NCBI GenBank assembly: GCA_026395315.1
Contig: JAPLYY010000024.1
Coordinates: forward strand, 1 to 35,117
Source: Candidatus Shapirobacteria bacterium
GTDB taxonomy: Bacteria > Patescibacteriota > Microgenomatia > UBA12405
Direction of reading: 5' to 3'
Length of the DNA stretch: 35,117 nt
Shown here: one piece after another, positions 9,915-32,019 of the stretch
Layout: the number at the start of each line of letters is the position of its first letter
How positions within the stretch are numbered: the stretch's first letter is position 1
The notes under the pieces: model-generated
The model's database searches: none
The model's input: only the letters and a program-made list of their open reading frames with translations
Told to the model about the DNA's origin: nothing
Made by a program: the position numbers and the translations under genes

Positions 9915-9946
9915 TAGATCGCCAATACTATTCTCTATTATTGGAA

Positions 9947-10400: not shown

Positions 10401-10435
10401 AAACAGCCTCAGATTTTTGAGACCTGAGGCTGTTT
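10401..10435 (-). terminator. 12-bp-stem hairpin downstream of the DUF2958 gene
   Basis: AAACAGCCTCAG (10401-10412) pairs with CTGAGGCTGTTT (10424-10435). The A/T runs at the stem ends would allow it to work in either direction. Confidence 0.5.
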
Positions 10436-10444
10436 GAGACTGAC

Positions 10445-10759
10445 TTACTTTTTCGTTTGCGGTATTACCTCGCTGATTCGTTTTTCTCCAAAATATCTGT
10501 CTCGCTCAATACCGATTCCAAACTTTCCGCGATAACTTTGAAGCTCAAACAGTGCAAACGAACCCCACTCATCATTCCAATCGCCGAAGATGGAAACATA
10601 GCCAAAAAACTCCTTCGTGATTGGATCAAATTCAGTTGCATACCAGATACCAGCTCCGGCAGGATTAAAAAATTTCGCAATTACCAGAGGATCGCTAACG
10701 TTTTCTTGTCTGCCCACCTTTCCAAATCTTTTTAATAGTTCTTTAGTTAACAGTTGCAT
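10445..10759 (-). CDS. DUF2958 domain protein (conjugative-plasmid associated)
   Basis: 104 aa. The sequence LLTKELLKRFGKVGRQENVSDPLVIAKFFNPAGAGIWYATEFDP...FFGYVSIFG...ELGSF-type pattern...ERDRYF matches the characteristic DUF2958 layout. Confidence 0.8.
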   Translation of the reverse strand: MQLLTKELLKRFGKVGRQENVSDPLVIAKFFNPAGAGIWYATEFDPITKEFFGYVSIFGDWNDEWGSFALFELQSYRGKFGIGIERDRYFGEKRISEVIPQTKK

Positions 10760-10802
10760 TATTTATTCACCCCCTTTCTTTTTGCTGCTTCCGGAAAATT
10801 AA

Positions 10803-12040
10803 TGTATTTGGAAGCATGCCCATGCTTCCAATACTTGGATGTCTTCAAAGCGGGGTGAGGTTTGCAAGGGCAAGCGAAGCACAGTTTATTGGAGTGAAAC
10901 GGAAACCCTTGCCAAACGAGGGGCAAGACCCCTAAATATCAAATTATTTAAAAAAGTGATTAGGACGCGATACATTTCGGACTCTTATACAAAAATATAT
11001 GAGTCACGAGACAGACAGAACAAGACACATTCTTCCAAAGCTGGGCAAGGGTAATTACAATACCCTGATGAAGCTGATTTCAAATAGTCTTACTTTTAGT
11101 GTTTCTGATTGTGCTAAGTTCAGGCTTCATGTATTGGATCATTATTTTAAACATGGCATCAAGTCCACCTGTCATGCTTTTAATCTTCCAAGGAGCACTG
11201 TGTATGGTTGGAGGAAGTCTTTTTTATCCTCAGACAAAAAGATAGTTTCTCTGGTTCCCAAATCCACCAGGCCAATTAGAACAAGGCAGATGGTGCTTGA
11301 TCTAGAACTTCTGGAGTTTATTAAATCAATGAGAGAAGAATATGGAAATCTGTCCAAATATAAAATCAAGCCATTCTTAGATGAATACTCCAAAAAGAAC
11401 AATCTACCTTTATATGGAACAACCAAAATTGGAGTAATTATTAAAAGAAAACACTTTTTCTTTGAAACTAGATCAAAAAGGAGATTTAAAAGAAAACCCT
11501 TTATAGTGAGGCTAAAAAGATCTCCCAAAGAAACTATCCCGGGATATATTGAAATGGACTCTGTAATCATTCAGGTGATTAACAGAAAATATTTCTTTTT
11601 AACAGCAATTGATATTGTTACTAAATTTGCTTGGGTAAAAATGACCACAAACCATTCCTCAAGGCAAGCCAAGCTTGCCTTAATTGAATTCAAAGAAAAT
11701 TACAAATACTGTTTAAGAACAGTCCAAACTGACAATGGATCAGAATTCTTAAGTGAGTTTGATGAGTATTTGCAGGAGATCAAAATCAAACATGAGTTTA
11801 TCTATCTTAAAAGTCCAAAAATAAATGGTGTGGTTGAGAGATTCAACAGAACCATACAAGAGGAATTTATTCAAAGAAATGATAGTTACATTGATGACAA
11901 GTTTAAATTTAATCAAAAACTACAAAATTATCTAATCTGGTACAATACAAAAAGACCACATTACTCACTGGGACAAATTTCCCCCTATGAGTACATGCAA
12001 AGATTTACCTTAAAAGTCTGAAATGTACCCGACCTATACA
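10803..12040 (+). mobile_element. IS481-like insertion sequence (boundaries approximate)
   Basis: It contains a single rve-type transposase ORF. The putative ends are TGTAT... (10803) and ...TATACA (12040), which are only weakly complementary. No flanking direct repeat was seen. The right end abuts the truncated VirB4-like reading frame. Confidence 0.5.
10999..12021 (+). CDS. DDE transposase with integrase core (rve) domain, IS481-like
   Basis: 340 aa. An N-terminal HTH-like region is followed by IEMDSV, VQTDNGSEF, INGVVERFNRTIQEEF and YNTKRPHYSLGQISP. Confidence 0.85.
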   Translation: MSHETDRTRHILPKLGKGNYNTLMKLISNSLTFSVSDCAKFRLHVLDHYFKHGIKSTCHAFNLPRSTVYGWRKSFLSSDKKIVSLVPKSTRPIRTRQMVLDLELLEFIKSMREEYGNLSKYKIKPFLDEYSKKNNLPLYGTTKIGVIIKRKHFFFETRSKRRFKRKPFIVRLKRSPKETIPGYIEMDSVIIQVINRKYFFLTAIDIVTKFAWVKMTTNHSSRQAKLALIEFKENYKYCLRTVQTDNGSEFLSEFDEYLQEIKIKHEFIYLKSPKINGVVERFNRTIQEEFIQRNDSYIDDKFKFNQKLQNYLIWYNTKRPHYSLGQISPYEYMQRFTLKV

Positions 12041-16060: not shown

Positions 16061-16177
16061 GCTTTCTCCGCGGTGGCAATTGGAATAATGGCGACAACTC
16101 CGGGGCATTCGCAGCGAAATTGAATAACGCGCCGGGTGATTCGAACAACAATATTGGCTTTCGTTGCGCCAGCGATC
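16061..16177 (+). repeat. DGR2 template repeat (TR2), FGE/C-type-lectin type
   Basis: It lies between avd2 and RT2 and translates as FLRGGNWNNGDNSGAFAAKLNNAPGDSNNNIGFRCASD, with nine AAY codons. It is homologous to 18953-19069. Confidence 0.75.
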
Positions 16178-17718: not shown

Positions 17719-20700
17719 ATGAAACCATTATTAAAAAACCTAAAAGCATACCTGTTTGTCCCACGCTGGCACTTGTCACGGTTTCAGTTTAATCTCTTTT
17801 CGATTTTATTTTTGTCTATTGGCCTTATTGGCGGAACGTATTTGACGCTTCTTAAAGTTTTTCCTAACGTTTTTGCCATAAACGACACAACTCAAATCTG
17901 GACGTTTGACGCCGGACATGCAACTGATTACACCACCGCTTCTACCATCATGACGGTTGATGCCAATGGCGCCCATCCGACAGGCGGCGTAGATGGAGCC
18001 AATGAAATCACTAACTCAAGCTTTACGGCAAATAATAACTCCTGGACACTGACGGCCCTGCAAAGCGCTACTAATACTCCGGCTGGCTGGGTAGTTGTTC
18101 CGGGAAACAGTAATTTTGTAGCGACCGGCTCGGCGTTTTTGGCCATGAAATATGAAGCAAAATGCGCCAATTCCGCAACCCCCACAGTTGGACTGACCAG
18201 TCCGGCGGATACAAGCTACGAGGTTTACCGTGATGACGGAACGGCAACGGCGGCCAATAACTGTACAGCGGCCAACGGCAGGGTGGTAACTTCGCTTGCC
18301 TCGGGATATCCAATTACTTATCTTTACCAAACAGAGGCGGCCACTCGCTGCGCAACAGTAACTGTGGGTGGCGCCGCTGCCCACTTAATCACCAATGACG
18401 AATGGATGACAATTGCCAATGACGCGGAACAACAGGCTGGTAACTGGACAGGGGCGGCGGTGGGTTCCGGCTATTTATTTGCCGGCCACAATGATAACAC
18501 TCCGGCTAAGGCCAGGGTTGCCTCAACCACCGATACCGGAAATTACCGCTGCGCCTATACCGATGCCAGTCCGGGCACGGAAGCTCCGAGTGCCTGCCCA
18601 ACCAAGACTGCCCTTGGTGAATCAGGGCTTGTAGGAAACCAGGTTCGTGTTTTGACATTATCAAACGGCCAACCTATTTGGGATATTGTCTGAAACGTCT
18701 GGGAATGGACAAATAATACGGTTCCGGCTAATCTGCAACCAACATCTTGGAACGGAACGACAGATGCGACAACCGGAGATTGGTCCGATTATGCAAGCGG
18801 ATCATTGCCGAGATATCTCCATAGCTACGTAAGCGGTTCACCGGTAACAAAACTAAAATCAGAACCAACAAGTTCTTCTTACACCCACAATGCTACATAC
18901 GGTATCGGAAGAATATGGAATTATTCTCTGTCAAGCAGTTCAACGGCTTACGGCTTTCTCCGCGGTGGCGATTGGAATAATATTGGCAACGCCGGAGCGT
19001 TCACATTGTATCTGAACATTACGCCTGTCTACCGGAACTACAACCTTGGCTTTCGCTGCGCCAGTGATCCCGTAGCCCTCTCCCAATCTCAGTCCTCTAG
19101 CATAGGCCGCGGAGCGGCCGGCGGCGAAGTTTTGGTGGTCCCTGCGGTAGCCGACGCCAAATTTACCCAGAGCATAAATCTGGGTGAAGTTGCCAGTTAT
19201 GATTTTTCCGCTTATGTCTACGACACCACAAGTAGTGGCGGGGCGGTGAGTGAAACGGTGGCCCAGTTGTATTTCAATGGCGCGGTGGTTAACCCAACCA
19301 CTTATACAGCGGTAACAGGAGAAACCGGGTGGTATAAGCTGACCGGAACCGTTACTAGCACCAACAGTGCTGTTGAATACGGATTATTTGTCAAAGCCGG
19401 AAAAACCGTTCGTGTCGATGACTTTACTTTATCCAAATCCGGAACTGCTTACAGTGTTTTCACCAAAAACGGTTATTTCAAAAACGACGTTTCCTCATGG
19501 GATTCGTTTTCAGCCAGTGTTACGAATAACGGCACTAACGGCTCGGTTGTCTACCAACTCTGCACTGATGACTTGGGGGATGCTGCCGCCGTTGGACAAG
19601 GAACTGCCTGCCAAGCCCAAAACAAATGGAAATGGTGGAACGGGAGCGCTTGGGTGTATGCCACCAACAGTACCACAGAGGTAAACACTGCCGCCCAATT
19701 AACACAAGCAGTGATGCAACACGCCTCGTTGGGAACATCTTCTAAAAAAATCAGTGTTAAGGCAATTTTGAGCTTCGGCGGAGTAGATTACCCCAAAATC
19801 GCGACCATTACCCTGGGACTGACCACAGACACGACGCCCCCAACCAATGCCACAGGACTGTACATGAATAACGAAAACGGCGTTACTTGTACCGATACTG
19901 ATAACTGCTGGACAAAATTGACCGGACCAACATTCTCCTGGACTGCCGGAAGCGACACTCAGTCACCCACTGTCCGATACTGTGTCTATTTGGGTACAGA
20001 CGCGGCTGGGGAGCCGGCAACGGACAAAGGAAAGCTGGGAACTTCTCCGGTAACCGTTCCTGTCGGCTGGACCTGCCAATTTTTGATTTCTGCCACCTCT
20101 TTGGATCTCTCAACTGCCGGATATTTGGCAACTGCACTGTCAAATGCTGACGTATTTACCACTACTGCAAATACTTACTATTTGAAAATAAAGGCTGTTG
20201 ATAACGGCGGAAATACGTCAACAACCAGTCTTTCTATGAAATTTAGGTATGACGGAACCGCACCAACTAATGTAACCTCGATTAATCCGGCGTCGGGAAA
20301 TTTTTCTAATGTCAGCGATATGAATTTTTCCTGGCCGGTTTCTCCCGCGATAGCAGCTTCCATTGATAACGAAAGCCAGGTATTAGGCTGGCAGTATCAG
20401 ATAAACCCAAGTGTGGATACCAACGGCGTTACAACGAGCGCCTGGAAAGGGACAACCCACTCAACAAACTTTAATCTTGACTATATTCCGGCAACAGCTT
20501 CTGCATATACATTTGTAACTTCCCGCGATAGCGATGGAAGCTCGGTGGGAGTGGGAAAGGTTAGTTCGGGCACTAACCAGATTTATTTCAGAACGGTTGA
20601 TAATGTGGGTAATTTTTCCTCAAACGCCACCATCAGAACCGGCTCTATTTCTTTCGGTGGAATTGCGCCGTCATTTATTCAAACAGACTCAGTGACTATT

Positions 20701-22560
20701 ACTCCCGATTCGGCAACAACAAACTCTTACGCCCTTTCCTGGCCCGCGGCAACAGCGACCACAAATAAAACGGTGACTCACTACTATTACATGATTAATG
20801 CGTCCCCGCCGACAACCTTAGCTACTTTGCAAGGAAACGCCTCGACTTATATCGATAACGGCACAGCCACAACCGTGGCCGTTCGCGCCCTGCCAAATGT
20901 TAATAAAGGCACAAACACGGTGCGGGTGGTGGCAATAGATAGCGCCACCGTTCCCAATTATTCATCCAGTAATGTTATCAGCGGAACTTTTGTACTGGAT
21001 TCGGATATCCCGGACAATGTCGGTAACCTGGTTGCCTCAGATTCCTCAATTAAATCTCAATCACAATGGAATGTTACCTTAACCTGGACGGCACCGGTCT
21101 ATCAGGGAGCGGGAAATCTTACCTATATTGTCAAACGCTCAACCGATAATGTTACCTTTACCCAAGTTGGAACCAGTACCGGCCTTTCCTATGTAGATAA
21201 CGCCCCTGCCTCTGCCTTGTACTACTACGAGGTTATAACCAAAGACAACACCGCTGACGGCTATTCAAGTGGCACCAACGCGGTTTCCATTACCCCAACG
21301 GGTAAATGGACAACCGCCCCAACCCTTGACTCAGGCCCCGATGAAGGATCAATCACCACTATAAAAGCCACAATTTCGTGGTAGACTTCAAGTACCAGCG
21401 ATTCCAAAGTACAATATGGAACAACGAGTGGCAGTTACAGCGCCGACGAAGTATCCAATTCATCTCAGGTAAGTAGCCACACAGTGAATCTAACCAACCT
21501 TAAAGCCGGAACGACATACTATTACAAGGTGAAATGGACGGATGAAGACGGCAACACCGGAACCTCTGACGAGAACAGTTTTACCACCGCTTCGGCACCC
21601 ACCATTAAGGATGTGACTGCCGGAAGTATCGGTTTATCCTCGACAATTATTCAATATACCGCTAAAGACGCCTCAAAGGTGAAAATTTACTACGGTAAAA
21701 CCACATCTTTTGGCGGCCTTAAAGAAGTTTCTACCTCTACATCGGAAACAACCTATACCACTCAGCTATCTGACTTAGATGACGGCACTAAATATTACTA
21801 CAAAATTAACTCTTTTGATTCAGAAGGAGCCGAATACGAGGGAACAATTCTTGATTTTACGACTCTCCCGAGGCCAAAAATCTCCGGCGTACGCCTAGAA
21901 ACGGTGGCTAATACCGCCCAGACAACTATCCGTGTGACATGGACAACTAATACGGAAGTTTCCTCAATCGTGACTTATTACCCGGAGGGTAATTCTGCCG
22001 CTGTCCGCGATGAAGTCAAGGTGACCTTGGAAAAGGGCGCGCATTCACTCATGATCCGGGGTTTATCTACCCAAACCAGATATTTGTTGGTTGTCCGAGG
22101 TCGAGACAAGCTAGGCAACGAAGCTATTTCTGATACCCAACGCTTTACAACTGCCACAGATACCCGTCCGCCGACGATCTTAAACCTTAAAGTTATTGGC
22201 GGCACAATTTCGCCAGTTGGATTTGCCGCAGGCGACGTTAAAGCTCAGCTGATTATTACCTGGGATACAGATGAACCGGCTACCGGACAGGTTGAATTCG
22301 GACAAGGTTCTGGCACCACTTATTCCCAAAAATCGCAGTTTGACGGCAACATGGCCAGTAACCACACCGTTATTTTATCCGGCCTAATACCAAGCCAGGT
22401 ATACCATCTACATGCGCTGTCTCAGGACGCTTCGGGCAATCCCGCAGTCAGCATTGATTTGGTCACTATCGCGCCCAAAGCAACCCGCTCGGCACTTGAT
22501 TTGGTAGTCAAAAATTTATCGGAGGCATTTGGGTTTATCGGTTCCATTCAACTGAAATAA
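17719..22560 (+). pseudogene. giant surface protein (signal anchor, FGE/C-type-lectin domain with VR-like segment, Ig/Fn3-like repeats) in one frame with two in-frame stops
   Basis: Track ORFs 17719-18693, 18805-21384 and 21484-22560 share one frame and are separated only by TGA (18691-18693) and TAG (21382-21384). The TGA replaces the Gly of the conserved motif, reading WDIV*NVWEWT. Four tandem Fn3-like units of the pattern (..TW.T....S.V.YG......YYYK) occur in the last ~400 codons. Confidence 0.7.
18953..19069 (+). repeat. VR-like scaffold homologous to TR2 (not adenine-specific)
   Basis: It translates as FLRGGDWNNIGNAGAFTLYLNITPVYRNYNLGFRCASD. It is the same length as TR2 with no gaps, and the first 17 nt are identical. 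Of 32 mismatches, only 8 fall at TR adenines. Confidence 0.7.
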
Positions 22561-22562
22561 CT

Positions 22563-23324
22563 ATGATGGAAACAACTAAAACCACGATCATCGAAGTAAA
22601 AAACCTTAATAAAACCTTTGAGGTTAAGTCAACACAAATACCGGTGTTGAAAGATATTAACGTGGAGATTAAAAAGGGCGAGTTTATCATTATTACCGGC
22701 CCGTCCGGCTGTGGCAAATCCACCCTCTTACATATCCTGTTGGGACTTGAACCGCCAAGTTCGGGCTCTGTTGTCTTTTTGGGTAATAATCTTTACGGTG
22801 GCATGACCGAGGATGAACGCACAGAAGTGCGAAAAACCGAAGTCGGCATGGTGTATCAACAACCCAACTGGATTAAGGCTTTAACCGTTTTGGAAAACGT
22901 GATGTTTGCCCTCCGGATTAACGGAGAAACGGATGAAGATGCCCGCAAAAAAGCGATTGAGGTTCTGACTATGGTGGGTATGGATAAATGGCAAGATTAC
23001 ATTCCAACCGAGCTATCAAGCGGGCAACAGCAGAAAGTGGCTTTAGGACGGGCTGTTGTCACCAACCCCCAGATTATTATTGCCGATGAACCGACGGGGA
23101 ACCTCGACTTTAAATCCGGTCAGGAACTGATGGAACTTTTAAAAAAACTGAATAATGAAAACCGAACGATTATCATGGTGACACACGACCTGGAATATCT
23201 GACCTTTGCCACCCGGTCGTTTATTATGTTTGACGGCAAAATTGTCGGATCGGCACATGAGCATGAACTGGCGGGAAAGTTGGGCGGTTTCAAAAAATTA
23301 ATGGCTTCAGTCACCAAACAATGA
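22563..23324 (+). CDS. ABC transporter ATP-binding protein (MacB/LolD/FtsE-like)
   Basis: Walker A is GPSGCGKST, the signature is LSSGQQQKVALGRA, and Walker B is IIIADEPTGNLD. Confidence 0.9.
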   Translation: MMETTKTTIIEVKNLNKTFEVKSTQIPVLKDINVEIKKGEFIIITGPSGCGKSTLLHILLGLEPPSSGSVVFLGNNLYGGMTEDERTEVRKTEVGMVYQQPNWIKALTVLENVMFALRINGETDEDARKKAIEVLTMVGMDKWQDYIPTELSSGQQQKVALGRAVVTNPQIIIADEPTGNLDFKSGQELMELLKKLNNENRTIIMVTHDLEYLTFATRSFIMFDGKIVGSAHEHELAGKLGGFKKLMASVTKQ

Positions 23325-23325
23325 T

Positions 23326-25299
23326 ATGAAAATACTAGTGGTACCAAAAATTAAACAAACATTCAAACAGTCTCTCCGTTCCATTGGCGAGATTGCAAGC
23401 TTCTTGATTCTGGTAGTTCTCTATTCATTTTCCTTATTTGTTATAAAAATAAGTCAGAAATGGAAAAAATTGGGTACGGTGACAACACGGTTTGACCGCT
23501 GGGTTAAAGGACTGGACAAAAAAGACCAGAGCGGCGTCAGCCGTTTGTATCTTATTGAAATTGCCTTCAAAAACATGGCTGCTAAAAAGACCCGAACGAT
23601 TATTACGATCGGCGGCATGGCCATCGGCATTTCCTTTATTGTATTTCTGGTCTCTGTGGGCTACGGCTTACAGCAATTGGTCGTTTCCCGGGTGGCGCGT
23701 TTGGACGAGTTGAAACAAGCAGAGGTTGTCCCGGGACTCTCCAAAGATTTGAGCCTAACCGACGCTACAATCGCAAAATTTAAAGAGATAAATAATGTCA
23801 CTAATGTTTTGCCCCTTATAGCCGTGGTCGGACGCATCTCCTATCAAAACTCGGTGTCGGATTTAGCTGTTTACGGAGCTACCTCCGATTACCTGAAATT
23901 CTCCGCCCTACAACCAGTAAAAGGAACGTTGTTTGAGAGTAACACCATTAGTTTTGACACTTCATCTCTTGGGGCGGTAGCAGGGGCAGAGACGCGTGTC
24001 GGAGAAAAGGGTGAGGAAATCGGCGCTATCTCCTACGCCATAGATACTGATACTTGGCTTAAAGTCCGTGAAGGGCCAAGTACCACAGCCAAAATTATTG
24101 GCTACACCAAACGCACCGAAGGCCACACAAACGGCACGGAAGTTTGGGGCGATACTTATATCACCGATACCAATGCCGGGAAATCCGGAACGAACGGAAA
24201 AGGAGATCCAATGGGCAAGTGGGTAAAAGCAACTTATTTACTTTGGGAAAAGAAGACGTGCACAACAGAAGGAAGCGGCGACTGCGAAAACGGATCGTAT
24301 ATGGTTTTACGGGATAAAGACAATCTTCAATTGCAGCAGGAAGGCTATATGGCAGAAATTTCAATGACTACTACACTTCAGGACCAGGTTACCCAGGTTT
24401 TAGGGGTAACAACAGCAAACACCTCGGGTTCCTTGCCGGTTGTGGAGGTGGCTAGTGAGTCTGCGTCGGCGCAAAATCAGGCAATACAAAAAGTGGAAGT
24501 TAAAAGTACGGAAAAGAAACAAATTGTGGTTAACCGTTCCGTCCTGCAACTTTTAAATATTCCCGAATCAGAGGCGGTCGGGAAAGAACTGAATCTTTCC
24601 ATGGTAGTAGTAGGGGAACTTCTGGATGATTCAAACATGCGTATTGAATCGACACCTTTGGCATATTCCATTGTCGGCGTAATCCCCGATGAAGGCACGC
24701 CGGTTGTCTATGTGCCATTTATTGATGTCCGGTCTTTGGGGGTTAATAAATTTTCTCAGGCCAAAGTTATTGTCAAAGATAAACAGGATTTGGCCAGCGC
24801 TCGCGCCTCAATTGAATCGGCAGGATATGGCACAGTATCGGTTGCCGATACCGTTGCTCAGATTGATACACTATTTGCCAATTTCCGTTTGATTTTATCA
24901 ATTCTCGGGATGGTGGCGTTATCGGTTGCGGCTTTGGGTATGTTTAACACACTTACGGTGTCACTTCTTGAACGTACACGGGAAGTAGGGCTGATGAAAG
25001 CCATGGGTATGAAATCGGATGAAGTTAAATCTCTGTTTTTGACTGAATCAATGATAATGGGACTTTATGGCGGAATTTTAGGACTTATTTTGGGAGTTAT
25101 TGTTGGGAAAATATTAAGTATTGTTTTGTCCGCTCTCTCTTTGATAAAAGGTGTGGGATTTGTTGATATTTCCTACGTGCCACCTGTCTTTGTTCTGGTG
25201 GTTCTTGCGCTTTCCGTACTGGTCGGAATTGCCACCGGCTACTTCCCAGCCAAGCGGGCAACCAGAATTTCCGCCCTCAATGCATTGCGCTACGAATAG
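23326..25299 (+). CDS. ABC transporter permease, FtsX/MacB-like, with a large extracytoplasmic insert
   Basis: It starts 1 nt after the ATPase stop. The C-terminal FtsX-type region carries LLERTREVGLMKAMGMKSDEV plus TM helices. The insert contains an SH3b-like stretch, WLKVREGPSTTAKIIGY. Confidence 0.85.
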   Translation: MKILVVPKIKQTFKQSLRSIGEIASFLILVVLYSFSLFVIKISQKWKKLGTVTTRFDRWVKGLDKKDQSGVSRLYLIEIAFKNMAAKKTRTIITIGGMAIGISFIVFLVSVGYGLQQLVVSRVARLDELKQAEVVPGLSKDLSLTDATIAKFKEINNVTNVLPLIAVVGRISYQNSVSDLAVYGATSDYLKFSALQPVKGTLFESNTISFDTSSLGAVAGAETRVGEKGEEIGAISYAIDTDTWLKVREGPSTTAKIIGYTKRTEGHTNGTEVWGDTYITDTNAGKSGTNGKGDPMGKWVKATYLLWEKKTCTTEGSGDCENGSYMVLRDKDNLQLQQEGYMAEISMTTTLQDQVTQVLGVTTANTSGSLPVVEVASESASAQNQAIQKVEVKSTEKKQIVVNRSVLQLLNIPESEAVGKELNLSMVVVGELLDDSNMRIESTPLAYSIVGVIPDEGTPVVYVPFIDVRSLGVNKFSQAKVIVKDKQDLASARASIESAGYGTVSVADTVAQIDTLFANFRLILSILGMVALSVAALGMFNTLTVSLLERTREVGLMKAMGMKSDEVKSLFLTESMIMGLYGGILGLILGVIVGKILSIVLSALSLIKGVGFVDISYVPPVFVLVVLALSVLVGIATGYFPAKRATRISALNALRYE

Positions 25300-25323
25300 G
25301 TAAACCTCTATAATACAGTTTGT

Positions 25324-25524
25324 ATGCCTGAGAAAATTGGTAAAAAATTAAAAGAAGCTCGATTAAAACTTGGGTTGAAACAAATTGATGTTGCTAAAAA
25401 AGCAGATGTTAGTATAAATTATTATGCCCGCATTGAGCGCGATGAAGAAAATCCGACACTGGAAACTATCAAAAGAATACTCAAAGTCTTGAAAGTAAAA
25501 TCTTCTAACATTCTGCCGTTTTAA
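25324..25524 (+). CDS. XRE-family helix-turn-helix transcriptional regulator
   Basis: 66 aa, with LKEARLKLGLKQIDVAKKADVSINYYARIERDEENPTLETI. Confidence 0.85.
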   Translation: MPEKIGKKLKEARLKLGLKQIDVAKKADVSINYYARIERDEENPTLETIKRILKVLKVKSSNILPF

Positions 25525-25754
25525 TCTTTTTTTAATTTTACCGGATCAATTTTTCCACTTTGTTCATCCTCAACAATTTTGTGAGAGAGTATATGAGCCG
25601 CGTCGGCGTTTTCTTCGAGAAATTTGATTGCATCTTCACGGGTAGCGTTTTTGTCTTTGTTTGTCCGTAGGTACCAGAGGATTCCTTCGATATCCTTTTC
25701 AGTTATTTGGTAACCAACGTTCTTTGTCATATGGTCGAAGTATAGCACTTTCAT
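25521..25754 (-). CDS. small hypothetical protein (77 aa) co-operonic with the HKD nuclease
   Basis: Its ATG overlaps the stop of 25751-26197 (4-nt overlap). I recognised no family. Confidence 0.55.
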   Translation of the reverse strand: MKVLYFDHMTKNVGYQITEKDIEGILWYLRTNKDKNATREDAIKFLEENADAAHILSHKIVEDEQSGKIDPVKLKKD

Positions 25755-26197
25755 ATGTACCTCCCGAAATTTAAAAAATTAAACATATCTACGGCGAAGC
25801 CGCCGCCTTCAAGGCGGCGCATAATCTCACGGCTATGTATTTGCGATAAGATATTCAAACTGCCCTCCCAGAGGATCGTACGGTCAATGATAGCCAGTTT
25901 CCGATGATGATTACCTGTGCAGAGTAAAACCTGTATCCCCATGTCCTCCAGAGCCTCTATTGCGCTTTCAGACTGATCATCGTAACTATCTATGTGTTCT
26001 TTAGGGTCACGGGTAACAATAAAGATTTTAACGCCTTTTACATACAGTCTTCTTAAAATCGACCAGAGTGTTTTCATCCGTTCCGAGGTTATGAAAGGGC
26101 TTTCGATAATTACTTCCTTTTGGCACTGTTCCAAATCCCTCAAGAAAGCCTTATAAAATGTCTTCTCATCATGAAGAGAGGAGGTAAGGTTATTCAT
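25751..26197 (-). CDS. single-HKD phospholipase D-family protein (Nuc-like nuclease)
   Basis: 148 aa. GNHHRKLAIIDRTILWEGSLNILSQ contains H-x-K-x4-D followed by the GS.N pattern. A GGAGG RBS is present. Confidence 0.8.
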   Translation of the reverse strand: MNNLTSSLHDEKTFYKAFLRDLEQCQKEVIIESPFITSERMKTLWSILRRLYVKGVKIFIVTRDPKEHIDSYDDQSESAIEALEDMGIQVLLCTGNHHRKLAIIDRTILWEGSLNILSQIHSREIMRRLEGGGFAVDMFNFLNFGRYI

Positions 26198-26306
26198 GGT
26201 TTACCTCCATATTATCAATAAATACGATTTTTCCGTCTACCTCTGTGATTCCTAATTCCCCGAGCTTATAATATGTCTTGATTACACTCTCGAAAAGAGG
26301 TTCCAC
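26190..26306 (-). CDS. small conserved ORF (38 aa, GTG start) upstream of the HKD nuclease; paralogue at 31015-31191
   Basis: MEPLFESVIKTYYKLGELGITEVDGKIVFIDNMEVNHE is ~53% identical over 38 aa to the translation of 31015-31191, and many of the nucleotide differences are synonymous-type. There is no obvious RBS, and the frame is open upstream into the repeat. Confidence 0.3.
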   Translation of the reverse strand: MEPLFESVIKTYYKLGELGITEVDGKIVFIDNMEVNHE

Positions 26307-27820
26307 CGGTGGTACAATTGGCTCACCAAAAGGGAAATCGAGTCGGAAGTGGGGGCAGCGCTGGCTGCGCCCCCCTTCGCAGACAGCGCTGCAAAGGCAT
26401 AATTCAAATCCGCCGAGAGCCGCCGATTCATTAAAAAGAAGTTCGAGCCGACTTTTTTTACCATGATTGACAAATCATGGCAATTATTTTTTGCGCGCGC
26501 GATTTTTTGCGCCTGTAAGGCGCAATTTACGAATTCTCTCATAGGTTCGAGCCAAACAGTTCCGTTTTTCTTAATTTGGGATTTTCTTTCCTCTAACTTT
26601 AGTTTTTCGTCAAACAATTCATTCTTCTTCTGTTTGTAAATTCCCGGTTCGATAACCTGATCGAGATAACCGTCAAGAAGCCTATTTAGTTTTACTTCGG
26701 ATTCTTGGATTTGTCCGTCAAGCTGTTTTTCTTCTACTTCGGCAACTAATTTATCTTTTTCTTCGGCTTGGGTGATCCACTTATCAAAATACGGTTCCCA
26801 GCCTTCGTGCAAGCCGCAATCATGAACAATTTTTCTTACTTGTTCTTCTGTATCAGATTCAGAAATATATTTTTGATTACATGGTTTTAGTTTTTTAGTG
26901 CAACGATAGTAAATAAAAGTTTGTCCAGTTCCATTTTTATATTTCTTGACGTGTTGTTCTGCGGTGATTGCGGCGCCGCATTCGCCGCAGGTCGCCAGAC
27001 CTGCAAAGGCGAAATTGTGGCCTTTTTGTCTTGGTCTTTCGATTCTCTCAACTTGTTTTTGGACTTCGTCAAACAGCTTTTTGCTGATAAAAGTTTTGTG
27101 AGAACCTTGATAATATTCGTCAGCATATTTGAGAATGCCTAAGTAGAATTTATTTGAAAGCATATTTTTTACTTGGCCAACTTTTACGAGTTTTTCTCCC
27201 TCCCGCTTAATTCCAAACTTAAACATAAATTGAGAAATGGCCGTAAATGAAGAATTGCCTTCAGCAAAAAGCTGAAATGATTTTTTGACGATTCGTGATT
27301 TTTCTTCGTCAACATCTATTCCCCTCGTTTTGGGATTATTGGAATATCCGTAAGGTGCTTTACTTGGCCAAACTCCGTTACGGAGTTTTTGCCTATTACC
27401 TCGTTTGACATTTTCGCTTAGATTATCAACATAATACTTGCTTTGGCCAAAGGCGATTGAAAGCATAAATTTGCCTTGCGGGGTGCTTTCAAACCAAAAT
27501 GAGGGGAATTTTAAATCAAGGAGTTTGCCGGTATCCAAAAGATAAATTATTTTTCCTCCGTCAATACTGTTTCTAGCCAAACGATCGGGATGCCATGAAA
27601 GAATGGCGTTAGCCATTCCTTTCTCGATTTTCCTTAAGACTTCCGCAAATTGCTCTCGCCCAGGAACCTTAGCGGTTTTCGCTTCGGTGATAAATTCGGT
27701 GATAGTTAGATTTTCTCGTTTGGCAAACTCCTTGAGTTCGGCAATTTGGGCTTCAATAGACAAAACTTGTTTATCCTTTTCATCTGTGGATTTTCGACAA
27801 TAGGCAATATATTTGATCAT
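26282..27820 (-). CDS. large serine recombinase
   Basis: 512 aa. Motifs are AYCRKSTDEKDKQVLSIEAQ, HPDRLARN, APYGY and the zinc ribbon CGECGAAI...YYRCTK. The last ~45 codons run through the 103-bp repeat and beyond, so the natural C-terminus is uncertain. Confidence 0.9.
   Translation of the reverse strand: MIKYIAYCRKSTDEKDKQVLSIEAQIAELKEFAKRENLTITEFITEAKTAKVPGREQFAEVLRKIEKGMANAILSWHPDRLARNSIDGGKIIYLLDTGKLLDLKFPSFWFESTPQGKFMLSIAFGQSKYYVDNLSENVKRGNRQKLRNGVWPSKAPYGYSNNPKTRGIDVDEEKSRIVKKSFQLFAEGNSSFTAISQFMFKFGIKREGEKLVKVGQVKNMLSNKFYLGILKYADEYYQGSHKTFISKKLFDEVQKQVERIERPRQKGHNFAFAGLATCGECGAAITAEQHVKKYKNGTGQTFIYYRCTKKLKPCNQKYISESDTEEQVRKIVHDCGLHEGWEPYFDKWITQAEEKDKLVAEVEEKQLDGQIQESEVKLNRLLDGYLDQVIEPGIYKQKKNELFDEKLKLEERKSQIKKNGTVWLEPMREFVNCALQAQKIARAKNNCHDLSIMVKKVGSNFFLMNRRLSADLNYAFAALSAKGGAASAAPTSDSISLLVSQLYHRWNLFSRV
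26323..26425. repeat. inverted repeat IR1, left copy (103 bp)
   Basis: It is the exact reverse complement of 27868-27970, checked base by base. It is GC-rich with an internal hairpin (GAAGTGGGGGCAGC..GCTGCGCCCCCCTTC). Confidence 0.9.
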
Positions 27821-27867
27821 AGTTTTGTTTCTCTTAAAATTTTTTCGTTTTTCTTCATTCTTTTTTA

Positions 27868-27970
27868 CGGCGGCTCTCGGCGGATTTGAATTATGCCTTT
27901 GCAGCGCTGTCTGCGAAGGGGGGCGCAGCCAGCGCTGCCCCCACTTCCGACTCGATTTCCCTTTTGGTGA
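27868..27970. repeat. inverted repeat IR1, right copy (103 bp)
   Basis: It is the exact reverse complement of 26323-26425. It lies 47 nt upstream of the recombinase start codon. Confidence 0.9.
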
Positions 27971-28070
27971 ACGTTTTTGAAAAAATTCGAACTCATTTCA
28001 AGTCAAACTGTTAGCTTGCCGCTTTGCGGCTCGCTACTCCAGCGCGGCGCCCCCACCCGCCGCGCTTCCG
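27967..28070. repeat. inverted repeat IR2, left copy (104 bp)
   Basis: Its reverse complement matches 30546-30649 at 103/104 positions. It overlaps the IR1 right copy by 4 nt (GTGA). It contains a 9-bp-stem GC hairpin, AGCGCGGCG..CGCCGCGCT. Confidence 0.9.
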
Positions 28071-28157
28071 AAAAAGTCGGCTCGAACAGGACAAAATCAG
28101 ATATGATTTTGTCCAAAGAAAAACGCAAAAATTTTAAAGAACTTTTATATAACTCAA

Positions 28158-28245
28158 ATGGCGCAACCGGTGGTCTCAACAAGAAATTGCTTTCTGTTGT
28201 CCGATTGCGCCATTAAAAAAAGCAATTTCTTGAATTGTTGAGACC
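28158..28245. other. compound inverted repeats capable of two mutually exclusive hairpins
   Basis: ATGGCGCAA (28158-28166) pairs with TTGCGCCAT (28205-28213). GGTCTCAACAAGAAATTGC (28172-28190) pairs with GCAATTTCTTGAATTGTTGAGACC (28222-28245, with a 3-nt bulge). The left arm of the second pair lies inside the loop of the first. Confidence 0.5.
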
Positions 28246-28286
28246 AATAACAATATACCAAAAACTACAAGTGGAAAACAAGAGGG

Positions 28287-30008
28287 TTAAATATAGTTCA
28301 ATTGTCTAAGTTTTGTTGCTGCTCGCGCAGAAATAGCTTGCATTGCTTCAGGAGTGAGAGAATCATATTGGCCTGAAAGTTCACCACAAGACTCAGCAAT
28401 TGTTTTAGTTATTCTACTGGTGTAACTTTCACCCTTTTTCCCTGATTCATCTCTTGTATCTTCAACAAAAGAAACACCTTCCGCTATTTGATTTGTAAAG
28501 AAAGACGATCGGGGTCTTAATGCGTCTTGAGGCAATCTTCCCATTCCGTCTTTTACCACACCAAGCCACTGATCTGAATTTGCCTTTTGCTCAGGAGTTG
28601 TTGCTTCAGGCATATATAAATATGCTACACAAGTATCTGTTCTTGTGTATTCTTCAAAATCTTTTCGGAATTTGAATTGCAAACGCATTCCATATTGATC
28701 CAGCTGATCAGATATCCTTGCTAGCTTTTCGGCCACTGTTGAACTACCTTCAGGACTTGCGTTAATGTAAAATCTTACCTCTCTAGCATTTGGAGGTCTG
28801 GGGGCATTACCCTTGAACCAAACAAAACCAGCTGCTTGATCAGGCTGGCCCCCATCAATCAATTCTTGCTCTGTAATCTGTCTAACTTTAGACGTACTTG
28901 CGACACGGTCTCTTAATCTTTGAGGGTTTTCAGAGTCAAATGTTTGGATATACTCATCAACATTAGGGGCATGAAGAGAATCTATTAGCGCTTCTCTCGG
29001 CATTCCTGATTTATGAATAACCTCATACATTGATTGAGCCATTTTTGCCAGAATTTGCATATCTGTTTCTGTAGTTTTTGTTTTTTCTCTGTAAACCTGC
29101 AATGTCCTTTGTAATGTCGGATCACTAGAAACAACTCTTAAAAAGGACTCAATTTGTTGCTGAAATGCCTGAGTTTTTTCATCAGCTTCTGTGGTTTCCG
29201 GTTTTGTTTTTTCTTGTACGGTCTGTTCTGATGCTTTTGGAGTAGATTGCTGATCTTTACCTTCTTGAGCAGGAACGATATTCACGCCTTGTGCTTCCAA
29301 GGCGGATTTAATTCTATCAACCGAAACTCCAGCAGCTTTTGCTTCATTAATTACAGTTTGTAACTGAGATTGAGTTAAACTACCCTCTTTTACTTTAGGA
29401 ATTTGGAGAGAAATTTCAGATAAATATGCCTTTATTCTATCTTCGCCTAAAATATTTTTGCCTGATTCCGGCGCAGTTGTTCCTGTTGCCGATTGAGTAG
29501 CTACTTGTTCGCGAGAGACAGCAGTTATCCCAAGTGATTTTAAGTGTTCGCTTATTTTTTCTCTTGGTACTCCCGCAGCTATTGCAGCATCAACTATTTT
29601 TTGAACATTTTTCTGTCTGTCCGCAATCGGAACCTCTTGTTTTCCACTAGCACTTGTAATTGCTGACGACAAACCTCTTTCTTGAGCCGGTTGAGGTGAG
29701 GTTTCTCCCACTTTTATTGCTGTTGGAGAGATAATTTCGCCACCTACTATGGATGTTTTATCTCTCGCAGCTTCATCATTTAAAAATTGTTCAAAGGGAG
29801 TTTTCCCTGTCTCACTTTGAGGTGACTGCTCTCCAGCAATATCTCGTAAAACTTGATCAGGATTGCCATCTTCAACTATTCTCTCGATAATTTTTTGTTC
29901 ACCTTGGCCAATAGGCTTTTCAGGCGCTTTTGCCTCGGGCGGTTTTAGAGCCGCTGGTTTTTCTGGTTGTTTTATCGTTGGTAATTCTGTAACTGGTCCA
30001 TCGGCCAT
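28287..30008 (-). CDS. hypothetical 573-aa protein, cargo of the IR2-bracketed segment
   Basis: The N-terminus is Pro/Lys/Glu/Gln-rich and looks disordered. Two ~33-aa internal repeats occur (..AAGVPREKISEHLKSLGI.. and ..AAGVSVDRIKSALEAQGV..). The C-terminal ~200 aa (VRFYINASPEG...LQFKFRKD...YTRTDTCVAYLY) is reminiscent of HopA1-family proteins, but that is recollection only and unverified. Confidence 0.6.
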   Translation of the reverse strand: MADGPVTELPTIKQPEKPAALKPPEAKAPEKPIGQGEQKIIERIVEDGNPDQVLRDIAGEQSPQSETGKTPFEQFLNDEAARDKTSIVGGEIISPTAIKVGETSPQPAQERGLSSAITSASGKQEVPIADRQKNVQKIVDAAIAAGVPREKISEHLKSLGITAVSREQVATQSATGTTAPESGKNILGEDRIKAYLSEISLQIPKVKEGSLTQSQLQTVINEAKAAGVSVDRIKSALEAQGVNIVPAQEGKDQQSTPKASEQTVQEKTKPETTEADEKTQAFQQQIESFLRVVSSDPTLQRTLQVYREKTKTTETDMQILAKMAQSMYEVIHKSGMPREALIDSLHAPNVDEYIQTFDSENPQRLRDRVASTSKVRQITEQELIDGGQPDQAAGFVWFKGNAPRPPNAREVRFYINASPEGSSTVAEKLARISDQLDQYGMRLQFKFRKDFEEYTRTDTCVAYLYMPEATTPEQKANSDQWLGVVKDGMGRLPQDALRPRSSFFTNQIAEGVSFVEDTRDESGKKGESYTSRITKTIAESCGELSGQYDSLTPEAMQAISARAATKLRQLNYI

Positions 30009-30009
30009 A

Positions 30010-30363
30010 TTATTCCTTTAATTTAACTTCTTTATTAGCAGCTTTCTTTAATAAAACATTTGCTTCTTCAATTTTTCCTTGTTTCAAAAGGATTCCTACA
30101 TGATTAACGACAGCGTTTTTTACTTTTTCATCATAATCTCTGGAAACTTCTAAAACTACTGGTACTAATTCTGAAAAATGGTCATCGAAGTTTTGAACCA
30201 CATCATGAATTTGATTTAATGTCATGTGGGGATGGAGGGAACTTAATATATACCTTGCTAGTTCCCTCGCTCGGTTGGCATCCATTTGATGAGCCTTTAG
30301 ACCATCTTCAATAATTTGCAATATTTCAAGCTCTATTTTTTTGCGATATTCCTCATTGTCCAT
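30010..30363 (-). CDS. hypothetical 117-aa helical protein, co-operonic with the 573-aa protein
   Basis: Its stop is 1 nt from the downstream ATG. There is no SD, and a TATACT box lies 6 nt upstream of the ATG, so the transcript may be leaderless. Confidence 0.55.
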   Translation of the reverse strand: MDNEEYRKKIELEILQIIEDGLKAHQMDANRARELARYILSSLHPHMTLNQIHDVVQNFDDHFSELVPVVLEVSRDYDEKVKNAVVNHVGILLKQGKIEEANVLLKKAANKEVKLKE

Positions 30364-30545
30364 ATTTACAGTATATCAAAATTGGGGTTTATTTTTTATG
30401 GCCAAAATAGTGGAAATTGGCCAATGGTTTTTGGTATCATATAGGGAGTTTCCGTGTCCACGCACGGGCGGGTGGGGCAAGGACACTATAAATTCCTTCC
30501 TTGCTCGAACGAAGTGAGAGAAAAAATCGCGCGCGCAAAAAATAA

Positions 30546-30649
30546 CGGAAGCGCGGTGGGTGGGGGCGCCGCGCTGGAGTAGCGAGCCGCAAAGCGGCAA
30601 GCTAACAGTTTGACTTGAAATGAGTTCGAATTTTTTCAAAAACGTTCAC
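30546..30649. repeat. inverted repeat IR2, right copy (104 bp), preceded by the CGCGCGCG end motif
   Basis: It is the reverse complement of 27967-28070 with one mismatch (30557). AAAAAATCGCGCGCGCAAAAAATAA lies at 30521-30545. Confidence 0.9.
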
Positions 30650-31082
30650 AAATCAACATTTCAAGGCTATAGTGCTTTGCTCGTTTTCTTCGAGAGTCGA
30701 TTTTAAGGCTAAAAAAGTTCCATACCCAGTGAGCGGAATCTATGAGCTTAGACATGAATAAAGAGAGATAAAGTCCCTTATATATTATTGAAGATAATTT
30801 TTCTAAGTGATAATATGCATTCATATGGGTGAAAAAATTGGACCAAGTATTTTTGACGAACATAAACCAGTCGAACCATATCGCCCCAGCACTTTTTTGA
30901 TGGGTGATTTCTATTTGACCCCTCAAGAGAGGTCTGTGTATAGAGTGTTTGGAAGATTTTTCAAGAAAATGAAGGCATTGGAAGAAAAAGATCCAGAGCA
31001 GCCAGTTGCTCCACCTACGGGCCAGGAAAATTCTGAATAAAGATTTCTTTTCGTTGTAGTGCTGGTTTGTAAATTTGGTCAT
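30636..31082 (-). pseudogene. ORF whose first ~20 codons are homologous to the HKD-nuclease N-terminus and whose remainder is unrelated
   Basis: MTKFTNQHYNEKKSLFRIFL compares with MNNLTSSLHDEKTFYKAFL, and the upstream arrangement is the same (GAGGAG RBS inside a conserved small ORF). The remainder is W/F-rich, resembling antisense translation, and it ends inside IR2. The competing plus-strand ORF 30807-31040 is equally unsupported. Confidence 0.3.
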
Positions 31083-31191
31083 TTTCTGTCTCCTCAGTAT
31101 CAATGACTACAATTTTCCCGTTATAGTAGGTGAAACCAAGCTCTTTCAATCTTTCGTAGGTTTTGAAAATACTCTCGAGTAGGTGTTCCAC
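31015..31191 (-). CDS. small conserved ORF (58 aa, GTG start), paralogue of 26190-26306
   Basis: The translation is MEHLLESIFKTYERLKELGFTYYNGKIVVIDTEETENDQ... A TAA lies 8 codons upstream of the GTG in frame. Confidence 0.3.
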   Translation of the reverse strand: MEHLLESIFKTYERLKELGFTYYNGKIVVIDTEETENDQIYKPALQRKEIFIQNFPGP

Positions 31192-31239
31192 CTGTGGTAC
31201 AGTGAGCTCACATTTTTATTTTTTTTGTTAAACTAATTT

Positions 31240-32019
31240 ATGTTCCTGCTTTTATTTTTCACTTTGTTTTTCACTCAACCTTCAATCGCTCAAGAACCAA
31301 CCACCATCGATCAATTTACTCAATTTAAAAACAACTATACCTTCCAATATAATCAATATTTAACTGCCTATTCCAAATATCTCGAAAAAAAGGATGTCAA
31401 TACTAAATATGGTTCCGTTACCACCGAAGCCGACAAGCTCGCCACCGCCAAAGATGCCATTAATGCCCGTAATTTAGCCCTAAAAACCTATCTTCAGGCT
31501 CTCCGGGTTTATCTAGACAAATATAAATCAGCCGATCCGGCCACCACCGATAAGTTCCAAACCGAGCTTCAAAATTGGGAAAATTGGTTTAATGAACAAT
31601 TATTAATCGTTCCCAATTTTAATAACGCCAATGACCTCAATAATTGGGTAAAAGATTTTATAATCAAATATATTGACATCCAGCAATCCATCTATTCTGC
31701 CCTGGTTTACAATCAAATCAATCACCAAAAATATACCCTTGGTTTACTTAATTCTCTCATCGACACCGCTAAAGCTGATCCTAATATTAAACCGGAAAAC
31801 CAGCTCTGGCTGAATAATTTTACCGTCCGTTCCGATTTAGTGAACACCAGTCTTGAAGAGACTGCCTCACTTACCATCAAAAAACAATACCAAACCAGAT
31901 TCGATAATTTTTATCCGGATGCCAAATCCGGTCTGAATACTGCCAATAACTACCTCCGTCAAATTTATGACAATCTTAAAATTATTATTGTTAAATCCAC
32001 CAATCCAGATGGAAACTAA
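31240..32019 (+). CDS. secreted hypothetical protein
   Basis: 259 aa with an N-terminal signal-like sequence, MFLLLFFTLFFTQPSIAQE. I recognised no family. Confidence 0.6.
   Translation: MFLLLFFTLFFTQPSIAQEPTTIDQFTQFKNNYTFQYNQYLTAYSKYLEKKDVNTKYGSVTTEADKLATAKDAINARNLALKTYLQALRVYLDKYKSADPATTDKFQTELQNWENWFNEQLLIVPNFNNANDLNNWVKDFIIKYIDIQQSIYSALVYNQINHQKYTLGLLNSLIDTAKADPNIKPENQLWLNNFTVRSDLVNTSLEETASLTIKKQYQTRFDNFYPDAKSGLNTANNYLRQIYDNLKIIIVKSTNPDGN

Follow-up and report, generated by a model that had tools for sequence, protein, structure and literature searches.

The DNA analyzed here, hereafter called the window, is the whole 35,117-nucleotide contig JAPLYY010000024.1 of Candidatus Shapirobacteria bacterium (assembly GCA_026395315.1). 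It contains the gene of a large serine recombinase (LSR), rec1, and a two-gene cargo, both lying among two abutting pairs of inverted repeats. The region from 26323 to 30652 (minus strand, 4,330 bp) is probably a small mobile element in its integrated state, with this LSR as its driver, and its repeat pairs would correspond to one duplicated attachment region. As judged from the sequence, the two pairs appear to derive from a single attP region of approximately 210 bp, of which one copy would be kept intact inside the element while the other would have been split by integration into attL and attR. The three junctions of the element share the core GTGA, and the whole unit recurs in more than 100 loci.

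A repeat search of positions 25000-32000 returned two main inverted repeat pairs. IR1 (26323-26425 and 27868-27970) is 103 nt long and 100% complementary, and IR2 (27964-28070 and 30546-30652) is 107 nt long and 98% complementary. Since the longest inverted repeat remaining in this 7-kb region measured only 25 nt, IR1 and IR2 are beyond what chance would produce. The original prediction, made from the letters of the window, had described IR1 with 103 of 103 identical positions, which our search reproduced; the IR2 it proposed (27967-28070 and 30546-30649) is contained in the slightly wider pair found here. It had also placed a two-gene cargo between the IR2 copies, and two co-directional open reading frames (ORFs), 30010-30363 and 28287-30008, are indeed located there.

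In the following, A designates the IR1 sequence and B the IR2 sequence, and the sign + indicates the orientation of the recombinase gene. Read in the direction of this gene, the element consists of B+ (attL), a 25-nt motif called m25, the cargo, an RNA module, an internal inverted attP, the recombinase gene and A+ (attR). A would comprise the P arm and approximately 80 additional nucleotides, and B the P' arm and approximately 80 additional nucleotides. The intact A/B copy (27868-28070) is inverted and lies 47 nt upstream of the rec1 start codon. Its A- half (27868-27970, plus strand) would form the P-arm side of the internal, intact attP, and its B- half (27964-28070, plus strand), which contains the T-loop-like sequence AAATTCGAAC and two G+C-rich hairpins, the P'-arm side. 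The other A/B copy is split: B+ (30546-30652, minus strand) would be the P' arm of attL, with the crossover at TCAC (30646-30649), and A+ (26323-26425, minus strand) the P arm of attR, with the crossover dinucleotide GA at 26324-26323.

The enzyme has the features expected of an integrase-type LSR. rec1 (26282-27820, minus strand) encodes 512 amino acids, in which Pfam detected the domains Resolvase (PF00239; E = 5e-21, residues 5-151), Recombinase (PF07508) and Zn_ribbon_recom (PF13408). The catalytic motif YCRKST, with the serine nucleophile, occupies residues 7-12, and residues 4-416 align with the structure of the SPbeta integrase (9dxh, E = 6e-17). A resolvase catalytic domain, recombinase and zinc-ribbon domains, and a length above 400 amino acids are thus all present. 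In contrast, small invertases are proteins of approximately 190 amino acids with a C-terminal helix-turn-helix, and rec1 scored 22 bits against the Mpi invertase model, for a cut-off of 272.

The 3' end of rec1 points to the border of the element. As the original prediction had noted, the left IR1 copy is part of the 3' coding region: the final 48 codons traverse it, and A+ holds the last 34 conserved codons. A homology search returned 7,948 homologues, many of them from named Patescibacteria; the exact rec1 sequence had no record in the contig index. Homologues 85-92% identical to rec1 share the C-terminus ...KKVGSNFFLMNRRLSANLNYAFAALSAEGGAASAAPTSDSISFLV, which is conserved up to ...SISLLV (SISxLV) and diverges completely beyond. 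In most of the divergent tails G[FLI]EP is present, which corresponds to the tRNA T-loop GGATTCGAACC translated in antisense, and a few read ...LLVNVFxKIRTHFKxxC, which would be the product of the window gene if A' ran straight into B. These C-termini, conserved and then abruptly divergent, place the recombinase gene at the very end of a mobile element, with the crossover just after the codons for 'LV'. This is the position of the 4-nt GTGA overlap between IR1 and IR2 reported in the original prediction, an overlap that is real and coincides with the crossover core common to the three att-type sites. A separate small ORF through A'B was also considered and was rejected because its frame has no start codon.

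The three junctions, namely R (A/host), M (A/B) and L (host/B), were aligned for approximately 25 loci and the window. They have merely 2-7 nt in common; this core is mostly GTGA, otherwise GTGC, GTGG or GC depending on the subfamily. Serine-integrase sites need to match at a central dinucleotide only. In the window the core is GTGA, and its last two bases, GA, which end A, are the crossover dinucleotide. A short central core with precisely exchanged half-sites was found in this way in the window and in the approximately 25 loci. Moreover, the tRNA arm contains TTCGAA at +12 from the core, and the B arm has it at +16, as part of AAATTCGAAC. Thus, the P' arm mimics a tRNA T-arm at shifted spacing, and a shifted half-site spacing is typical of attP versus attB. 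The sharing of the core alone by the three junctions points to R as attR, L as attL and M as an intact attP. The association of the repeats with recombination, and with the serine recombinase, that had been suggested from the sequence is supported by these att-type junctions. The two ends of the element, B+ and A+, are unrelated sequences sharing only the 2-7-nt core, and the terminal inverted repeats with target-site duplication of a classical transposon or insertion sequence (IS) were not found at these ends.

The element belongs to a very large family widespread in Patescibacteria (Microgenomates). The metagenome scan yielded at least 578 confirmed stretches of this family. The locus sample, taken among the matches listed in scans of species-representative genomes and metagenomes, comprised 162 loci, of which 133 were distinct. 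Self-comparison and feature mapping revealed a recurring order: B+, cargo, B- abutting A-, recombinase, A+. This double inverted-repeat layout was observed in 29-32 fully resolved genome loci and in 106 of the 133 distinct loci; the outer end of A- met B- in these 106, the start of the contig in 13 and a tRNA gene in 2-3. The layout persists down to 53% recombinase identity and is present in the complete genome CP011210.1 (locus L036), which indicates that it is neither an artefact nor a one-off. Inverted repeats of approximately 100 nt can confuse short-read assemblers, and many related contigs do break exactly at A- or B, so the possibility of a contig that is chimeric at the repeat boundaries had to be considered. 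However, the same architecture, with repeats specific to each locus, was found in more than 100 independent loci from many studies, projects and assemblers, on contigs of 100-1,000 kb and in CP011210.1. The chance that the layout of the window is an assembly artefact is therefore negligible.

The original prediction had likened the two segments to an invertase- or shufflon-type switch. In such a switch, the recombinase, or RecA, would flip the recombinase segment, the cargo segment or both, as in the Hin, Gin and Cin systems or in a shufflon. The repeats are indeed perfect, the crossover sites at their outer boundaries are real and inverted relative to each other, and a flipped recombinase arc would place the gene downstream of the tRNA promoter. 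The C segment of P1 (Cin) and the G segment of Mu (Gin) also display long inverted repeats, crossover sites at the outer borders and an adjacent serine recombinase gene, all of which are found here. Those systems use small invertases and a Fis-bound enhancer, their two orientations coexist, and inversion swaps the C-terminal ends of tail-fibre genes; the present element, in contrast, has an LSR and a fixed orientation and is a mobile unit. The shufflon (Rci) combines a tyrosine recombinase with multiple short sfx repeats, against a serine recombinase and two repeat pairs in the window.

The comparison of loci argues against such a switch. Among the 133 distinct loci, the recombinase segment was canonical in 106 and reversed in only 2-3, all of the latter on short contigs. 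Likewise, the RNA module of the cargo segment was co-oriented with the recombinase in 68 of 72 matches, and two of the four oppositely oriented modules belong to neighbouring elements inserted in the other orientation. The apparent flipped cases are those where a tRNA gene abuts A- on the 5' side of the recombinase (L135, L147 and L150), where the two arcs have opposite relative orientation (L165) or where the RNA module is reversed (L114 and L133). All of them are on short contigs, many with low coverage, where the repeat equals or exceeds the likely assembler k-mer in length, and L147 also contains a second anomaly and a duplicated end. These contigs may be real rare inversions or misjoins; their shortness, low coverage and repeat length make misjoins likely.

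Other features also speak against a switch. The cargo has its own upstream region inside its arc, cargo genes are found on either strand in different elements, and the enzyme is a 512-residue integrase-type LSR rather than a small invertase. Inversion would probably leave promoter-gene relations unchanged, since each segment holds its own upstream region; it would alter only the last approximately 13 recombinase codons and the outside promoter facing the recombinase. An invertible switch is thus unlikely. Both segments are fixed in approximately 95% of the loci, so that comparison with related genomes did not bring out the two orientations that freely flipping segments should show, and a phase-variation switch is not supported. 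From the alternatives proposed at the outset, the mobile cassette stands, since a unit with its own cargo is mobile, whereas the invertase or shufflon part does not.

Mobility of the complete unit is illustrated by two loci, L088 and L092. Between the outer ends of B+ and A+, a distance of 3,762 nt, their sequences are 99.7% identical. The first is located at a tRNA-Lys gene and the second at a tRNA-Glu gene, and their flanks are unrelated. The same element at different tRNA genes indicates that the whole B+...A+ unit moves as one. Another contig (L082), assembled with k = 127, which exceeds the length of either repeat, links the 3' end of the recombinase gene in turn to A, B, m25, the cargo and the RNA module, and ends exactly at the expected start of the second repeat copy. 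This structure fits a circular or tandem form. Protein tails running from A into B were also evaluated as a proof of the circle and were not retained as such, because graph fold-back or a misoriented repeat would account for those of L166 and L165; they are reasonably safe in L082 (k127) and in the 121-kb contig L081 only.

The 121-kb contig L081 contains one element within the internal attP of another element of a different subfamily, with hybrid A/B junctions. The array (5322-11000) reads tRNA-Lys/A, a recombinase of the other subfamily, A/B, cargo, B/A, recombinase P0044, then A with a diverged B-like arm, and the next genes encode a type I restriction-modification system. This array looks as if one element had entered the other at its internal attP. 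A recombinase-less derivative was also observed (L003 3958-6068, identical to L091), which consists of B+, cargo, RNA module, B-, approximately 20 nt of the A- end, approximately 35 nt of the A+ end and a tRNA-Gln gene. It appears to be a decayed or non-autonomous copy.

These arrays raise the possibility that the layout results from two independent abutting foldback or terminal-inverted-repeat transposons, i.e. an IS-like unit, A-recombinase-A, with a serine transposase, and a non-autonomous B-cargo-B unit. Each unit is flanked by its own terminal inverted repeats, A-units and B-units alternate in chains in L081 and L159, and the recombinase-less B-unit of L003 (3958-5947) lies beside a tRNA gene. 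However, the joint order and orientation are fixed in 106 loci, and L088 and L092 show B+...A+ moving as one piece. The L003 unit retains remnants of both A ends, and is thus a deletion derivative rather than a separate element. Moreover, to our knowledge, a serine recombinase is unable to excise a segment bounded by inverted sites. Two separate transposons are therefore quite improbable.

The targets of the family are mostly tRNA genes. In 92 of the 133 distinct loci, A+ shares its outermost nucleotides with the 3' end of an intact tRNA gene, which lies on the opposite strand; in the 40 loci scanned for this feature, 36 had an intact tRNA overlapping the last nucleotides of A+. At least 12 tRNA identities are used (Lys, Glu, Val, Arg, Tyr, Leu, Pro, Trp, Gln, Ile, Ser and Met). 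The overlap covers the last 4-6 nt of A+, and TTGGTGA of the element supplies the 3'-terminal TCACCA of the tRNA. The family thus behaves as a tRNA-targeting integrative element in these 92 loci, and its copy in the window does not, since ARAGORN detected no tRNA gene in the window, nor was any Rfam family found there.

The window copy is inserted instead at a non-tRNA target, which we call class-2. The host-side arm of attR (26280-26322, minus strand) reads GTGA followed by GCCAATTGTACCACCGGTGGAACC..., and the same type of target flanks the elements in L004, L084, L032 and L086; in the homologues P0002 and P0065 the reading frame continues into it. A paralogue of this target without an element, AATGTGA followed by GCTCACTGTACCACAGGTGGAAC, lies 550 nt outside the element (31185-31214, minus strand), and in L004 the element is inserted at the position homologous to this paralogue. 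Both class-2 copies of the window begin a short conserved reading frame, VEPLFESVIKTYYKLGELGITEVDGKIVFID and VEHLLESIFKTYERLKELGFTYYNGKIVVID. Small ORFs of the minus strand, 31015-31191 and approximately 26198-26311, with the frame VE[PH]L[FL]ES...GK[IV]V[FV]ID, are located at these copies, and the occupied copy precedes a gene for a phospholipase D (PLD)-like nuclease (25751-26197). A 155-aa ORF (30636-31103), in frame with the right flank, was considered as a gene disrupted by the insertion; it was rejected as spurious, having no Pfam match and a composition that looks non-coding.

Several short motifs are conserved around the att sites. The motif m25 (TTATTTTTTGCGCGCGCGATTTTTT; 30521-30545, minus strand), directly inside B+, is 25 nt long with an alternating GC core between T tracts. 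It is 96-100% identical across the family, even within coding sequence. An inverted copy (26484-26508, plus strand) lies 58 nt ahead of A+, within the part of the recombinase gene that reads QKIARAKNN, and is found at the equivalent position in nearly all loci. From these positions, the attP formed on excision would be bracketed by m25 copies. The internal attP, in turn, is bracketed by an inverted pair of another motif, m30 (27834-27855 and 28116-28137); the first copy (minus strand) is situated within the 47 nt that separate A- from the recombinase start codon and recurs in relatives. The second belongs to a conserved non-coding stretch beside B- (28071-28139, minus strand), which consists of the reverse complement of m17, GTTCGAGCCGACTTTTT (28071-28087), a hairpin (28089-28114) and m30. 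The motif m17 itself is T-loop-like; it is present at 26441-26457, 15 nt before A+, with its complement directly beside B-. These differing flanks are the sole feature found that could distinguish the two attP copies. A third occurrence of m25 is present at 190-213 of the window, and L147 looks like a recombinant or misjoin exactly at m25. Repeat A also contains a sigma-70-like site, TTCGCA-16-CATAAT, at 26376-26403 (plus strand) and 27917-27890 (minus strand), which is a consensus match alone; it faces the recombinase arc from both ends, in sense from A- and in antisense from A+.

Most elements also carry a structured RNA motif just upstream of B-, beside the internal attP. In the window (28140-28264, minus strand) it comprises a TATATT box (28252-28260) and an RNA of approximately 95 nt with the helices P1 (28237-28245/28172-28180) and P2 (28222-28231 and its partner) and the pseudoknot P3 (28201-28214/28157-28170), all on the minus strand. 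A covariance model (R1) built on P1 and P2, leaving P3 out, gave 72 matches in 100 sources (L001-L149). Covariation was extensive, 29 of 33 pairs varying on both sides. Paired cells amounted to 89%, against 69% in shuffles and 30-45% with slid partners, and P3 was 96.8% paired although it lies outside the model. One conserved U.G pair indicates that the transcribed strand is that of the recombinase. No Rfam family matched this motif. In the subfamily of the second recombinase of L081, the motif sits between A- and the recombinase gene, which shows that the RNA travels with the recombinase. From its position and strand, it could be either a recombinase leader or a small RNA.

A role of the repeats at the RNA level was also considered, in which the recombinase mRNA would form a duplex between A- in its leader and A+ near its 3' end, B+ would likewise pair with B-, and stability or translation would be controlled in this way, so that pairing would be under selection. 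A- and A+ do lie in the leader and in the 3' coding end of one transcription unit, a structured RNA is located just upstream, and the A'B region folds moderately better than shuffled sequence (z = -2 to -2.9). The identity of the copies does not fit this role. Within one element, the A and B copies are mostly 94-100% identical, with a decayed tail down to 73-86%, and no mismatch at all is present in 22 of 99 A pairs and in 26 of 72 B pairs; between elements, A and B sequences are 70-93% identical. G.U-compatible mismatches between copies are no more frequent than A.C mismatches (71 versus 68 for A, 39 versus 33 for B), indicating that there is no selection for RNA pairing and that repeat identity is a property of the DNA. 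Moreover, with cargo genes on either strand, B+ and B- often do not share a transcript, and the repeat boundaries coincide with DNA crossover cores. An RNA-level role is thus highly improbable, and the near-identity of the copies, being a DNA-level property, would result from gene conversion or from the youth of the copies. No known RNA gene (tRNA, tmRNA or intron) was detected in the G+C-rich repeats by Rfam (gathering threshold and E ≤ 10) or ARAGORN.

The cargo of the window (28287-30363, minus strand) consists of a 117-aa ORF (30010-30363) and a 573-aa ORF (28287-30008). The latter has a weak HopA1-like match and no other annotation, and NCBIfam gave no match for the window cargo. The cargo protein was found solely on Logan contigs of approximately 2 kb, which extend little beyond the cargo arc and are uninformative on orientation. 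Over the family, 89 resolved cargo arcs measured 0.58-7.4 kb and contained 0-6 ORFs of at least 80 amino acids, usually 1-3, and the smallest elements are approximately 2.4 kb long. The cargo is hypervariable, 131 proteins forming 91 clusters. It includes genes for a methyltransferase, MFS, VTT/DedA and EamA transporters, an EEP nuclease, an aldo-keto reductase, an ABC1 kinase and a GNAT acetyltransferase. No conserved accessory gene resembling a recombination directionality factor (RDF) was found among the 89 arcs, nor were replication genes found in the cargo.

Cargo replacement could be followed in one informative pair, L103 and L107, which occupy the same tRNA-Lys site and are 97% identical on the recombinase side but carry different cargo. 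The breakpoints lie within the conserved flanks, approximately 100 nt from each B copy, and hence the cargo was swapped in place, apparently by homologous recombination. An exchange exactly at the att cores had also been considered and was discarded for this pair, whose breakpoints are approximately 100 nt off and resemble homologous recombination.

The junctions and the comparison of loci show an LSR element that has integrated through a crossover at the GA core and has kept an intact inverted attP upstream of the recombinase gene. The following steps are proposed for it. Recombination between attL and attR would release a circle with two inverted attP copies of approximately 210 bp, which would separate the recombinase arc from the cargo arc. 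Integration would proceed via the attP copy flanked by m25, and the second copy would remain intact in the chromosome. As to the function of this internal attP, it may be a high-affinity, integrase-binding autoregulatory operator before the integrase gene and a docking site where sibling elements insert, building arrays; we hold this role as tentative, with somewhat less than an even chance of being correct. It is rather doubtful that it serves as an essential third site for RDF-free excision or cassette exchange. A broader proposal, which is equally speculative, is that the internal attP, the m25, m30 and m17 motifs and the pseudoknotted RNA could form a self-contained control device with which an LSR would manage integration, excision and cargo swapping and need no separate directionality factor. 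This device could take the form of a three-site attL-M-attR synapse, of a two-att circle isomerizing in the manner of the 2-micron plasmid, or of a natural cassette exchange in which the inverted att sites on both sides of the cargo recombine. If this were true, the integrase could land at almost any tRNA gene.

Several observations weigh against the interpretation as an integrated LSR element with a duplicated attachment region. The copy in the window is inserted at a non-tRNA target. Excision, the circle and binding at the internal site are predictions. The operator proposed above would need approximately 50 bp, against approximately 210 bp of near-perfect identity. A circle with two identical attP copies would allow the use of both, yet approximately 95% of integrants used the same one; this bias can be explained only by the flanking motifs (m25 versus m30) or by selection. 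The few contigs with the opposite orientation (L135, L147, L150, L165, L114 and L133) also count on this side. Finally, by the textbook rule, serine integrases recombine attP with attB only, and reversal needs an RDF (PMC11722253; 10.1101/2025.05.02.651858; PMC12286644), which is a difficulty for every role considered for the internal copy. By this rule, an internal attP would be inert or dangerous to the chromosome, and the attP x attP insertion of L081 would be irregular.

The element resembles the large serine integrases of phages and other elements (SPbeta SprA/YokA, phiC31, Bxb1 and A118, TnpX of Tn4451, CcrAB of SCCmec) by its resolvase, recombinase and zinc-ribbon/coiled-coil architecture, by short att sites sharing a central dinucleotide only, and by P- and B-type half-sites with the same motif at shifted spacing (TTCGAA at +16 versus +12). 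Unlike in those systems, the integrase gene itself ends in the P arm, many different tRNA genes are targeted instead of one site, a conserved RDF-like gene is lacking from elements that can be very small, and integrated copies retain an intact inverted attP within the duplicated sequence. We know of no other LSR element with a retained inverted attP.

Mobile elements of other recombinase classes share single features with this family. The yeast 2-micron circle carries Flp/FRT within 599-bp inverted repeats, which separate two unique arcs, one of them with the recombinase gene. The circle proposed here would likewise have two target-bearing inverted repeats and a recombinase gene in one of two arcs; unlike the 2-micron circle, it is inferred, its cargo has no replication genes, its isomers are unequal, and its recombinase is a serine and not a tyrosine enzyme. 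In SSV-type archaeal integrases, attP lies within the integrase gene, so that integration alters the gene, and DIRS elements have an internal copy of their joined ends, the internal complementary region. Both features are found here, attP overlapping the integrase gene and the joined ends being copied internally. However, those elements use tyrosine recombinases and DIRS is a retroelement, whereas here the last approximately 13 recombinase codons alone change on integration.

The nearest concept is that of tycheposons and other tRNA-targeting cargo islands, which also have an integrase beside a tRNA gene whose 3' end is restored by the element, small hypervariable cargo and arrays at tRNA genes. 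Unlike the present elements, tycheposons are flanked by direct tRNA-derived repeats. They use tyrosine recombinases in 910 of 937 cases and many carry replication genes (10.1101/2020.12.28.424599). The main text of the same preprint does not mention an internal inverted att copy, the term 'inverted repeat' occurring in its reference list only (10.1101/2020.12.28.424599). In our full-text literature searches, neither this family nor an LSR element with an internal inverted attP was found to be described, and no structured RNA associated with an LSR came up. The double inverted-repeat layout thus appears to be undescribed, in line with the original prediction, which knew of no described system with such a layout; LSR integrative elements at tRNA genes are already known as a kind.

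The remainder of the window contains further mobile-type genes. A second large serine recombinase, rec2 (297-1994, minus strand; 565 amino acids), is approximately 21% identical to rec1 over a short stretch only. It reads through an intact A2/B2 junction (TTGGTGA followed by GTGTTTTCGAAAAAATTCGAAC; window 186-345), after which come hairpins and m25. This junction has no inverted duplicate, and the 3' flank of L147 closely matches its B arm, the two being nearly identical. The window may be part of a plasmid or of an integrative and conjugative element in the attP state. A diversity-generating retroelement (6938-7082; 7115-8212, minus strand; 8126-8509; 8521-8665) includes a reverse transcriptase and a bAvd-like accessory gene. 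Its template and variable repeats form a 145-nt pair in which 24 of 26 mismatches fall at template adenines, and the variable repeat is the C-terminus of a 703-aa PcfJ-like protein (4967-7078). Genes for a type IV secretion system coupling-protein-like ATPase (2287-4929), a Replic_Relax relaxase-like protein (9105-9914) and an rve-family integrase (10999-12021) are also present, as is a 7-kb stretch (18000-25000) with a G+C content of 0.45-0.51, compared with approximately 0.38. Together, these three genes and this stretch suggest that the window as a whole belongs to a conjugative or other mobile context. A 117-nt direct repeat (16061-16177 and 18953-19069) with 74% identity was also noted.

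Large serine integrases are leading tools for the insertion of large DNA, and their main limits are fixed targets and the need for a separate protein for reversal. The family described here could be useful in this respect: it is huge, it uses at least 12 tRNA genes, and it has a retained second attP, usually a structured RNA and no conserved accessory gene. The role of the second site and of the RNA could reveal a new control of directionality or a form of cassette exchange. Microgenomates have tiny genomes and acquire accessory genes by routes that are poorly understood; for these bacteria, the family seems to act as the main single-gene shuttle.

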